Below, piece by piece: positions 10,892 to 13,440 of a DNA stretch of 64,000 nucleotides (positions are counted from its first letter, which is position 1; each line of letters starts with the position of its first letter). This DNA comes from a virus. The stretch lies in the IMG/VR virus record IMGVR_UViG_3300025892_000010. One strand, given 5' to 3'. The translations under genes and the position numbers were made by a program. Under the pieces are notes generated by a model. That model did not search any database. It was not told the origin of the DNA and saw only the letters and a program-made list of their open reading frames with translations.

Positions 10892-11344
10892 TTATTTAAT
10901 ATTGATTGTTCTAGCCTTTTTATGGTCTGGAATAATCTTCTCTAAAGATACTCTTAAAAGTCCATCTTTTAATTCAGCACCTTTAACTTCAACGTCATCA
11001 GCGATTGTAAATGATTTAGTGAAGTTTCTTTTAGCAATGCCTTTGTGTAATACACCGTCATTGTCTTCTACTTCTTTTTCATCTTTATCTTTTACAGATT
11101 TAATTACAAGAACATTGTCCTCATAGTTTACTGATATATCTTTTTTACCATAACCTGCTAATGCCACCTCAATATTATATGTTAAAGAACCTGTCTTTAC
11201 AATATTGTATGGTGGATAGTTGTTAGCCGTCATATGTGGTAGATGATTTGATATTGTATCAAAATGGTCAAACATTTCGTCAAACCCCACGGTAAACGGT
11301 TTTAGTCCAGTAAAAATTGAATGAATTGCTTTGTGATTGGTCAT
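10892..11344 (-). CDS. hsp20: Small heat shock protein
   Basis: NYPPYNI, IEVALAGY, LHKGIAKRNF, GAELKDGLL. Confidence 0.95.
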   Translation of the reverse strand: MTNHKAIHSIFTGLKPFTVGFDEMFDHFDTISNHLPHMTANNYPPYNIVKTGSLTYNIEVALAGYGKKDISVNYEDNVLVIKSVKDKDEKEVEDNDGVLHKGIAKRNFTKSFTIADDVEVKGAELKDGLLRVSLEKIIPDHKKARTINIK

Positions 11345-11404
11345 TAGAACCTCCTTATTTTAAGCAAAGTTAATATTTGATACCTCTTATGAGCGTATCA
11401 TTAT

Positions 11405-11437
11405 TATTTATATAGTCATTATATTTCATATTTCAAG
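11405..11437 (-). promoter_or_regulatory. RpoH-like promoter overlapping a late promoter, upstream of hsp20
   Basis: CTTGAA-N16-CTATAT overlapping TATAAATA. Confidence 0.5.
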
Positions 11438-11780
11438 TGGTAGTTTTTCTTTTTTGAGTTTAAAACTACCAAAACATTAACTCGCAGCTTTAGTTTGTTT
11501 TTTTACAGGTGGTGCGAAACTAAGCGCAAATGCTAAAACAATCCACCATTGAGTTTCACTCTCGCTCTACTCAACAACTTTCAGGCAGAGGTAGGTCTCA
11601 CCCTCTTTATACTAACTTATCTTACTAAGCCTATCACCGTAGTGCTACGAAGACCAATGAGCCCAAAACTCATAATTCTTGGTGGTTTTTATAGAGACCA
11701 CCAACTCTACCGGTTCGTTAATAGATTAACAGGTCGGCAACCTCTCCACGCCAGCAGGACTTACGAGTTGCCCGCTCATC
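11438..11780 (-). ncRNA. Structured ncRNA region with tandem H-type pseudoknots
   Basis: GC-richer non-coding gap with many complementary stems; late-promoter-like GATAAATA at 11783-11790. Confidence 0.6.
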
Positions 11781-11814
11781 TATATTTATCATCATCTAGG
11801 CACAGGCGGGGAAA

Positions 11815-12024
11815 TTAGTAACCTCTTGTTTGTTCAAGTTTCTTCATCTTTTTCTTGAAGTTCTTGATACCCTCTTTTTTCTTCTCACGCTTGATTTCAC
11901 TAGGCTTTTGATAGTATTGTTTAGCTCTTAACTCTTTTACAATACCCTCTTTTTGTACTTTTTTCTTAAGCACTCTCATAGCTTTTTCAAGGTTTCCTTT
12001 TCTTACTTCTACAACTATTGACAA
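11815..12024 (-). CDS. rpsU: Ribosomal protein bS21
   Basis: VEVRKGNLEKAMRVLKKK...YYQKPSE. Confidence 0.9.
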   Translation of the reverse strand: MSIVVEVRKGNLEKAMRVLKKKVQKEGIVKELRAKQYYQKPSEIKREKKKEGIKNFKKKMKKLEQTRGY

Positions 12025-12029
12025 ATTAA

Positions 12030-12149
12030 TTACCTTCCTTCCTTGTCGTTGTTATTAGAATCAATACAATTAAGTATTAAATATAAAACACCAATACTAA
12101 TTGGTATGGTTATAAACAAAAATAATATAGCACTCTCAATATCAAACAT
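12030..12149 (-). CDS. 39-aa membrane peptide MFDIESAILFLFITIPISIGVLYLILNCIDSNNNDKEGR; not in ORF track
   Basis: ATG to TAA with upstream GGAAAG; one TM-like helix. Confidence 0.5.
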   Translation of the reverse strand: MFDIESAILFLFITIPISIGVLYLILNCIDSNNNDKEGR

Positions 12150-12164
12150 AAATTCTTTCCGTGT

Positions 12165-12198
12165 AAAAACGGTGACGAGGCCACTACACCTCGCCACC
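12165..12198 (-). terminator. Rho-independent terminator after cobS
   Basis: GGTGGCGAGG-loop-CCTCGTCACC followed by GTTTTT. Confidence 0.7.
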
Positions 12199-12219
12199 AA
12201 GGACTTACACTATGATAAT

Positions 12220-13440
12220 TTAGATAACGTCAGCGTCATCCGAGGATTCATCTTCCTCATCCGTTTGAGAGTCAACTTCAGCTTTTCTCTGGTCTTCAGC
12301 GATTTGCTCGGCAGAAGCACCAGCGTCCACTTTAGTGTATAACTCCATAAACGAATTCTTTGTATCATCATCAAATCTATTCGTACAAACTTCAATAGCT
12401 TTTATTTTTTGATTAAAGATTGTATAGGCTTGAATAATGTGGACTAATCTTCTCGTTGAGATAATCTCATCAACACCACCGTCAAAGTAGGTTTTTCTGA
12501 TTACATCAGCCCAAGTTACCAACTTCTTACAAAAGTCGGCGTCTTTTTTACCAGACTTGGCAAGAGTACCAACTAGGATTTTTTCTTCAATCTTAGCAGT
12601 AGGATACTTTTGCTCAAAGGTAATTGGAAATCTTTCCAAGAACGCTTCGTTAAGTACGTTAGTACCTATAAATTTACCGTCATCACTACCTTGACCTTTT
12701 GTATTGGCAGTAGCAACAACATTGAAGCCATTAGCAGGTTTTACAAACTTGTTAATCTTCTTAACATAAACACCTGAGCCTTCAAGTATCGGTTGTAAAC
12801 ACATAATCTTGTTAGAGGCAAGGTCAATCTCATCAAGAAGCAACAATGCACCTCTCTCCATCGCCTCAATAACAGGACCATTTTGCCAAACGGTCTGACC
12901 ATCTTTAAGTCTGTAACCACCTAAAAGGTCATCTTCATCTGTTTCAATTGTAATGTTAACCCTAATCAGTTCTTTTCTTGCTTCGGCACAAGCTTGGGTC
13001 ACACCCATAGTTTTACCGTTACCAGATAAACCTGTAATGAATACAGGATAAAACATATTAGATTTTACAATTGATTTTAAATCGGGATAATTACCGAATG
13101 ATACGAACACAGGATCCTTTTTAGGAACAATGTCGCCAACTAATGAAGATACCACATAGGCAGCTTCAGAGTTAGTTGTAGTTTCAATAGGTAAAACTTT
13201 TTCAGTTTCGCCTTTAGTTTTAACTACTTCGTTTTCAGTAGGTAATTTAAAGAGTGATTTGCCAACTTTGAAATCACTATTTTTTATCAACCATTGTGGC
13301 GCATACTTGCAACCAAAATGTTTGTTGGCGCTCTTTAATTGAGTCACCGTCAATTCGTTTGTACCAAACTTTTTAACAGCATAGTCAACGAATTCTTGTT
13401 GTTTAGCATTTAACATAGTGTATTGTCCTTTCGCTTTCAT
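12220..13440 (-). CDS. cobS: CobS/MoxR-like AAA+ ATPase (true start may be 13416)
   Basis: GLSGNGKT, LLLDEID, TANTKGQG, NEAFLERF, ISTRRL. Confidence 0.88.
   Translation of the reverse strand: MKAKGQYTMLNAKQQEFVDYAVKKFGTNELTVTQLKSANKHFGCKYAPQWLIKNSDFKVGKSLFKLPTENEVVKTKGETEKVLPIETTTNSEAAYVVSSLVGDIVPKKDPVFVSFGNYPDLKSIVKSNMFYPVFITGLSGNGKTMGVTQACAEARKELIRVNITIETDEDDLLGGYRLKDGQTVWQNGPVIEAMERGALLLLDEIDLASNKIMCLQPILEGSGVYVKKINKFVKPANGFNVVATANTKGQGSDDGKFIGTNVLNEAFLERFPITFEQKYPTAKIEEKILVGTLAKSGKKDADFCKKLVTWADVIRKTYFDGGVDEIISTRRLVHIIQAYTIFNQKIKAIEVCTNRFDDDTKNSFMELYTKVDAGASAEQIAEDQRKAEVDSQTDEEDESSDDADVI

Follow-up and report, generated by a model that had tools for sequence, protein, structure and literature searches.

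Series of H-type pseudoknots joined by A-rich linkers within one RNA of 300-400 nt are known from transfer-messenger RNA (tmRNA) and from the 3' untranslated regions (3' UTRs) of plant viruses such as tobacco mosaic virus (TMV). The manA and wcaG motifs are orphan, pseudoknotted RNAs associated with marine phages and metagenomes, the GOLLD and ROOL RNAs reach about 600-800 nt, and pelagiphages are among the most abundant viruses of the ocean. GOLLD and ROOL have been described as ornate orphan RNAs that phages carry beside tRNAs, in islands rich in RNA (PMC5737381), and the ribosomal protein bS21 was recently found to bind the P6 element of OLE RNA at a helix that mimics a Shine-Dalgarno (SD)/anti-SD duplex (Wencker, Lyon and Breaker 2025, PMC12054373). 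The present analysis concerns a DNA stretch of 64,000 nt (hereafter the window) from the IMG/VR virus record IMGVR_UViG_3300025892_000010, whose source is a T4-like pelagimyophage (a SAR11-type ocean phage), and within it the minus-strand gap between the genes for bS21 (hereafter S21) and hsp20. Comparative analysis indicates that positions 11814-11438 of this strand encode a 377-nt structured non-coding RNA, with compensatory changes in 29 homologues.

A search with the S21 protein gathered 80 viral loci (labelled by L-numbers, L001 being Mosig EXVC030M, L002 HTVC008M and L267 HTVC027P), and in most of these nhmmer with the window gap retrieved homologues behind S21, either full-length or partial; the 29 distinct full-length homologues of the window RNA form the covariation set A3, to which the pairing figures below refer unless another sample is given. 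No reading frame is conserved over the RNA region, where the longest stop-free frames vary between homologues, and 387 of 490 indel runs relative to the window are not multiples of three, so that the region is non-coding. A preliminary description, made from the window sequence alone, had proposed a pseudoknot-rich non-coding RNA at this place; the broken frames and the covariation in homologues bear this out, and all the sequence elements that it listed are present at their positions. In the deposited genome of Mosig EXVC030M, two hypothetical proteins (Mosig_00015 and Mosig_00014; L001 1795-1914 and 1927-2043) lie wholly inside the conserved RNA, and since no frame is conserved over this stretch they are flagged here as probable false open reading frame (ORF) calls.

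The folded RNA starts immediately past the S21 stop codon (at 11814) with a helix, P0, whose strands in the window pair with a single C·U mismatch (Table 1). P0 is predicted independently by RNAalifold on 42 homologues, with 4-15 double changes at four pairs, and by a duplex search that recovers 40 distinct 5' strands with a complementary partner, starting 1-10 nt past the S21 stop. The two strands change together from one relative to the next (CCAUGCC/GGCGUGG, CCUACGC/GCGUAGG, CCUCGC/GCGAGG, UUUUGCG/CGCAAAA, UUUACGC/GCGUAAA, CUAUGCC/GGUAUAG, CCUAUAAG/CUUAUAGG). A long-range GGC/GCU closure, also proposed by RNAalifold, is 92% paired, shows no covariation and competes with the covarying P0, in favour of which it was rejected. 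The RNA had earlier been thought to begin after the AU-rich box GATAAATA; this start has to be abandoned, the box lying inside the loop closed by P0, and in about a third of the homologues the site carries only an ATATATA-type box and not TATAAATA. Because P0 needs bases upstream of this promoter-like box, the RNA is probably transcribed together with S21, as a trailer of its message.

Within the same loop stands the hairpin HP1, identical to the formerly described stem A, which is 100% paired with double changes in three of its six pairs and has a nearly invariant loop of its own; the exact motif GGCNNYTCRTAAGWCC is present once in 69 of the 80 S21-seeded loci. Together with the position of the fold at the S21 stop, this confirms the suspected link to bS21 at the genome level. 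Among the elements farther downstream, PK-B is a pseudoknot in which both stems covary (three covarying pairs in UAGAG/CUCUA, and pairs at alignment columns 115-117 in GGUGGU/ACCACC), and the stem UUGAGU/ACUCAA shows four covarying pairs. The terminal PK-D also covaries in both stems, stem 2 being 86% paired with three covarying pairs and stem 1 lying in a poorly aligned part. These elements, like stem A and the AGAGG/CCUCU hairpin with its pseudoknot, had all been foreseen, and covariation upholds them. It does not do so for three other proposed pairings: GGCAAC/GUUGCC near stem A is 39-81% paired without consistent covariation, AUGAG/CUCAU of the central domain is 34% paired, and UGCG/CGCA of element C is 69% paired with no double change; relatives keep none of the three. 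Of element C, only a small AGC/GCU hairpin and the inner five base pairs of UUAGUUU/AAACUAA (the AGUUU/AAACU helix) are conserved, each 100% paired with one covarying pair. Conversely, P0 and the central helices P1, P2 and P3 were absent from the preliminary description.

The proposal that the fold recurs along the RNA while the sequence does not holds for PK-B and PK-D, which are similar H-type knots, but not for the middle, which is a distinct, sequence-invariant junction motif. Its copies indicate that the central domain is an autonomous motif, a four-helix junction locked by the GGUCU:AGACC pseudoknot. Loci carrying it were gathered by a 14-mer from the loop, then by a two-anchor pattern, and from the S21-seeded loci, and the totals are lower bounds; by pattern, at least 156 viral loci carry the motif (S21-seeded loci included). 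The covariance model R1 finds exactly one copy per locus. Copies measure 65-100 nt and fall into three classes by the length of J3/4 plus P4 (at least 99 distinct copies), all with the layout P1 - C/U - CAUUGGUCUU... - (optional P2) - P3 - UUAG...AUAAU - P4 with loop GUGAGACCUA - 1 nt - P1'. Helices P1, P3 and P4 covary strongly (90-99 distinct copies), AGAGG/CCUCU (P4) is 100% paired in the full-length homologues, and the pseudoknot is unbroken in 99 distinct copies (95 with U:A, 4 with C:G, none broken). About 25 columns are invariant among 90 motif sequences. The occurrence of G·U pairs, e.g., at the base of P3, identifies the folded strand as the sense strand. The motif is well suited to become a new Rfam family, and would repay structural or biochemical study as a possible ribozyme, aptamer or RNA that binds protein.

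When compared with all 4227 families of Rfam 15 by cmscan (at gathering score over the 64-kb window; at E<=10 over 11300-11900 and two other forms of the motif), neither the window RNA nor these forms give any match at gathering score, and only noise appears at E<=10; over 62 related loci and records nothing in Rfam 15 matches the RNA itself, and the literature, searched by topic and by invariant sequence strings, yielded no description of it. The RNA is thus uncatalogued, and the suggested kinship to manA/wcaG, SAM-II/V, preQ1, ToxI or tmRNA finds no support in Rfam. The manA (RF01745) and wcaG (RF01761) models do not match in the window, nor at E<=10 in 11300-11900 and the two motif forms; these motifs are likewise pseudoknotted orphans tied to marine phages and metagenomes, but their architecture differs. 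The tmRNA and the TMV upstream pseudoknot domain share the serial H-type pseudoknots and A-rich linkers, whereas the phage RNA has neither a tRNA-like end nor a tag frame, ARAGORN finds no tmRNA or tRNA in the window, and no Rfam tmRNA-clan model matches; moreover, the plant-virus tandem pseudoknots sit in 3' UTRs of RNA viruses, and the RNA described here comes from a double-stranded DNA phage. For a ToxI-like array, repeats of about 36 nt beside a toxN-like gene would be expected, whereas the neighbours are S21 and hsp20, and TRF detects no such array in 11300-11900, its sole finds being two trivial 2-copy repeats that lie outside the fold. Models of SAM-II/SAM-V and preQ1 have no match, and the knots lie in the trailer behind S21 rather than ahead of a metabolic gene. 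GOLLD and ROOL resemble the present case in their RNA-rich setting, but they are much larger, belong to unrelated models and have no Rfam match here. The closest functional parallel may be OLE P6, an SD/anti-SD-like helix bound by bS21, P0 being a purine-stranded, often GGAG-containing helix directly behind the bS21 gene; OLE RNA is, however, about 600 nt long, occurs in Bacillota and has no sequence or structural homology to the phage RNA, and GGAG is not found in all phage variants.

Among the S21-linked relatives, a gap of 160-556 nt separates S21 from the next gene of at least 90 aa in each of the 73 (of 80) S21-seeded loci whose downstream sequence extends far enough. Reading of 12 divergent gaps reveals a common frame of P0, HP1, a short hairpin and a terminal H-type knot in the 11 that have the RNA directly after S21, the knot having an A-rich loop 3 and lying just ahead of the TATAAATA box of the next gene; an equivalent terminal knot is present in all 12 (among them L018, L034, L043, L044, L058, L064, L030, L052 and HTVC008M). 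HTVC008M keeps HP1 and the terminal knot, and no P0 was identified there. The middle modules are gained and lost cleanly: the junction motif alone is missing from L050, whereas L052-type RNAs retain just the 5' part homologous to the window, and L065-type RNAs just the 3' part. With five modules, the window RNA is the large version. Most loci have hsp20 as the gene that follows the RNA; in about 14 another gene of 320-440 aa takes its place, the RNA still being behind S21.

The junction motif has a distribution of its own. It is present in pelagimyophages (38 of the 80 S21-seeded loci) and in Kolga and Aegir, two SAR11 siphophages with the order RNA polymerase - S21 - gp47 - motif; other carriers are contigs whose polymerase, primase and GP88-like protein are closest to those of Pelagibacter phages HTVC027P, HTVC023P and HTVC033P and of phage 023Pt_psg01. 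No copy was found in HTVC027P (first 50 kb), 023Pt_psg01 (first 20 kb) or the S21-hsp20 region of HTVC008M, and the absence from these cultured relatives marks the motif as accessory. An exact two-anchor scan of one genome per prokaryote species (185,579) gives a single match, on a 3.9-kb contig of a Rhodobacteraceae metagenome-assembled genome (72.7 bits with model R1); the distribution is therefore near-exclusively viral. Among the carriers, the motif lies 13-15 nt after a gp47-like ORF of 68-70 aa in about 20 loci, with a convergent gene opposite in several; other copies stand between a Pam3_Gp34-like gene and the primase gene, or have on their 3' side an 11-bp palindromic hairpin, then CAAGCNN repeats of 7 nt in a run and a TTGACA-N17-TATAGGAT-type promoter. 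In such contexts the motif is a 3'-end or stand-alone element and not a 5' leader. Two further ideas were rejected: an obligatory link to S21, as a motif-bearing HTVC027P-like contig that is 96% complete has no S21 gene, and the gp47-like ORF as a shared partner, as it has no homologue in the window. Pfam searches on the small ORFs neighbouring the motif were uninformative.

Two further elements accompany the motif in these loci. The CAAGCNN repeats form runs of 4-7 tandem copies directly upstream of the promoter and just 3' of the motif (L113, L130, L219, L223, L259, L099, L142 and others); they look like iterons or UP-like elements, and ORF callers read them as 'QASS' repeat peptides. The 11-bp hairpin, UUUAGAAUGAU...AUCAUUCUAAA, is conserved directly after the motif in L090, L142, L161, L179, L252 and L264 (perfect in L090 and L179, with one mismatch in the others); it has no U run and may be a terminator variant or a protein-binding site.

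For the function of the RNA, a tentative preference, held at just short of an even chance, goes to a trailer of the S21 message that is stabilised by its terminal knot and has a specific partner, bS21 or the 30S subunit being the leading candidate. The RNA would be made as part of the S21 message. In its fold, P0 closes a loop around the AU-rich box and HP1, and pseudoknot B, the junction, the hairpin, domain C and PK-D come next as independently folding modules. Because P0 starts at +1, a ribosome terminating on S21 must cover it, given the established size of the ribosome footprint, and the P0/HP1 fold would therefore form only once translation of S21 ceases. The terminal knot would bury the 3' end beside an A-rich strand, which is expected to hinder 3'-to-5' exonucleases, and the trailer should therefore be long-lived and shield the S21 message. 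With its invariant HP1 loop and roughly 25 invariant junction bases, the RNA has more than a roadblock needs, thus implying a specific partner; bS21 or the 30S platform is the best candidate, with which the RNA might form a small ribonucleoprotein (RNP) or an autoregulatory operator. That the core motif is clustered with S21 and gp47 in Kolga and Aegir, both siphophages, also speaks for this reading. More broadly, an RNA fold at the stop codon of a phage S21 gene bears on why many phages carry bS21, and with the 2025 precedent of bS21 on a non-ribosomal RNA the question becomes testable with one protein and one RNA.

Several observations weigh against a partnered S21 trailer. Minimum free energy folding of the window sequence alone does no better than shuffles (z = -1.2), so that the evidence must be comparative; likewise, per-sequence duplex energies of P0 are only modestly better than those of shuffles (mean z = -1.3), and the case for this helix therefore rests on covariation. 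GGAG occurs in the purine strand of P0 in only about half of the variants. The AU box fits a T4-type late promoter in about two thirds of the homologues, and a shorter late transcript starting from it, without the 5' strand of P0, may also exist. In HTVC008M (L002 2082-2417) and in one clade (L095, L171, L175, L183 and others) a gene of 105-111 aa, whose protein has a weak winged-helix match (HTH_39, E=0.007), stands between S21 and the RNA. Finally, the nearly complete carrier contig without S21 implies that the junction core needs no phage S21. A narrower version, in which the trailer is a dedicated bS21 partner, is unlikely: newly made S21 would bind the P0/HP1 clamp at its own stop together with the junction motif to form a phage RNP, which could meter S21 synthesis or dock on the SAR11 30S subunit and bias initiation toward phage messages, the junction motif then serving as a transferable module for binding a host translation factor, exchanged between unrelated SAR11 phages.

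One explanation does without a specific partner. The knots could be generic stabilisers or processing barriers that block exonucleases at the ends of transcription units, as suggested by the terminal H-type knot with A-rich loop that ends the RNA in every relative inspected, and by HTVC027P-like contigs in which the core follows a small ORF by 13-15 nt and precedes either a gene in convergent orientation, a terminator-like palindrome or the next promoter, which is the position of a 3' UTR; however, simple hairpins are enough to block 3' exonucleases, and the invariance of about 25 junction bases and of the HP1 loop across unrelated phage lineages argues for specific recognition, making this alternative unlikely, though the most credible of those set against a partnered trailer. 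Less probable again is that the junction motif is a new self-cleaving ribozyme or a processing signal that trims neighbouring RNAs or messages. A small, pseudoknot-locked junction with many invariant unpaired bases, intergenic, accessory and single-copy, would suit such a role, as would its position directly after ORF stops and 7-10 nt from the Flavobacterium-1 RNA in 8 of 40 loci scanned; against it, conservation of the sequence is above that of most small ribozymes, and no Rfam ribozyme family (hammerhead, twister, twister-sister, pistol, hatchet, HDV-like) matches the window RNA or the two other motif forms.

The downstream gene offers another reading, the RNA being a 5' control region of hsp20 such as an RNA thermometer, which is common for small heat-shock genes, and hsp20 is indeed the next gene in most loci. 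Yet P0 ties the fold to the preceding stop codon, about 14 loci have the RNA followed by the other gene of 320-440 aa, and between the RNA and hsp20 lie a TATAAATA box and a short hairpin leader belonging to that gene, with its SD about 90 nt past the RNA and beyond that box; no ROSE or FourU thermometer model of Rfam matches, and this reading is very unlikely. Two others are slightly less probable still. A ligand-sensing riboswitch aptamer would account for the pseudoknotted, multi-helix junction and its many invariant bases, but there is no consistent downstream gene or expression platform, the motif often lying in a 3' UTR or ahead of the following promoter, its exact pattern was not found in host genomes, and it is not in Rfam. 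Equally improbable is a tRNA-shaped decoy or other anti-defence RNA directed against a SAR11 factor: the order P1-(P2)-P3-P4, with P4 abutting the 3' strand of P1, and the J1/2:L4 contact mimic a cloverleaf topology, and the motif is accessory and almost entirely viral, occurring in two unrelated lineages of cultured SAR11 phages and in pelagipodophage-like contigs; its loop sizes are nonetheless unlike those of tRNA, it has no CCA and no known defence target, and neither ARAGORN nor the Rfam tRNA models recognise it.

Table 1. Predicted elements of the RNA and neighbouring features of the window, in 5' to 3' order of the minus strand
Feature	Position	Strand	Basis
AAA/CobS-like ATPase gene	12220-13440	minus	ORF list and Pfam
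Intrinsic terminator after CobS-like gene	12199-12170	minus	12-bp GC-rich stem and U run
bS21 gene, 69 aa	11815..12024	minus	PF01165, E=7e-16
bS21 stop codon TAA	11817-11815	minus	ORF list
P0 5' strand UUUCCCCGCC, begins +1 after S21 stop	11805..11814	minus	RNAalifold, duplex search
AU-rich box GATAAATA, late-promoter-like, inside loop closed by P0	11783..11790	minus	sequence
HP1 (stem A) AGCGGG/CCUGCU, conserved loop CAACUCGUAAGU	11753..11776	minus	covariation
P0 3' strand GGCGUGGAGA, purine-rich, SD-like, downstream of HP1	11743..11752	minus	RNAalifold, duplex search
PK-B, H-type pseudoknot UAGAG/CUCUA and UUGGUGGU/ACCACCAA, A-rich linker	11679..11709	minus	both stems covary
Junction-pseudoknot core motif	11580..11668	minus	covariance model R1, 83.8 bits, E=2e-17, sole copy in window
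Core P1	11665-11661/11586-11582	minus	covariation
Core J1/2, CUCAUUGGUCUU	within 11580..11668	minus	sequence
Core pseudoknot GGUCU:AGACC	11655-11651 with 11598-11594	minus	comparative
Core P2	11644-11642/11637-11635	minus	comparative
Core P3, loop GUAAGA	11630-11626/11619-11615	minus	covariation
Core P4 (AGAGG/CCUCU), loop GUGAGACCUA	11606-11602/11591-11587	minus	covariation
Hairpin UUGAGU/ACUCAA, conserved inner GCGAGAGUGAA	11549..11574	minus	4 covarying pairs
Domain C: hairpin AGC/GCU (11533-11531/11525-11523), helix AGUUU/AAACU (11521-11517/11496-11492)	11492..11533	minus	comparative
PK-D, terminal H-type pseudoknot GAGUU/AACUC and UGGUAGUUUU/AAAACUACCA, A-rich loop 3	11438..11483	minus	covariation
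TATAAATA box of hsp20	11412-11405	minus	sequence; outside described RNA
Short hsp20 5'-UTR hairpin	11399-11379	minus	sequence; outside described RNA
hsp20 gene, 150 aa, next gene downstream of RNA	10892..11344	minus	PF00011, E=2e-15

The minus-strand gene order around the RNA is CobS-like ATPase, intrinsic terminator, small ORF, bS21, a 470-nt gap and hsp20. Pelagibacter phage Mosig EXVC030M shares 70.6% identity with the S21-hsp20 segment, the hsp20 end of which matches HTVC008M. The transcription unit of S21 likely starts past the strong intrinsic terminator (12170-12199). This terminator falls inside a program-listed ORF of 56 aa (12030-12200), which for this reason probably starts later or is not real.

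Motif-bearing phages have small islands of structured RNAs; in the myophage lineage the island also holds a tRNA (in HTVC008M) or glutamine riboswitches (in some relatives). The tRNA gene of HTVC008M (L002 1789-1859) ends 18 nt ahead of the S21 start codon, and as it adjoins S21 this neighbourhood can be regarded as an RNA-rich island. Some pelagimyophage relatives carry glutamine riboswitch aptamers (RF01739, 57-67 bits) at 0.7-0.9 kb past the S21 stop (L058 1398-1448, past hsp20; L066 3553-3603; L074 3533-3585; L043 1071-1119); the window has none.

One RNA found beside the junction motif is Flavobacterium-1 (RF02976), whose full-length copies (98-119 bits) adjoin it in the loci mentioned above, usually with the motif just 3'. 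Like the motif, it is a structured, orphan, small-RNA-like element of phages, but it differs in fold and sequence and is a neighbour, not a relative: its model scores 76-119 bits beside the motif in other loci and matches neither the motif nor any stretch of the window. The adjoining full-length copies lie on the same strand as the motif (L099 2251-2372, L114 3298-3419, L090 4627-4747, L083 10376-10491, L188 4239-4360, L213 2443-2562, L211 3357-3478 and L229 1680-1799); in L143 and L203 a Flavobacterium-1 RNA is found elsewhere in the locus, not adjoining the motif. The cultured SAR11 phage HTVC027P likewise has a copy of 90 bits, in a gap without annotation (L267 17753-17873, minus strand).

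The short hairpin in the hsp20 leader, outside the described RNA, has a stem that covaries among relatives (GAUAC/GUAUC, GACAA/UUGUC, GAGU/ACUC) and occurs at the same site in L018, L044 and L058; its loop in the window, GCUCAUAAGAG, resembles the HP1 loop CUCGUAAG.

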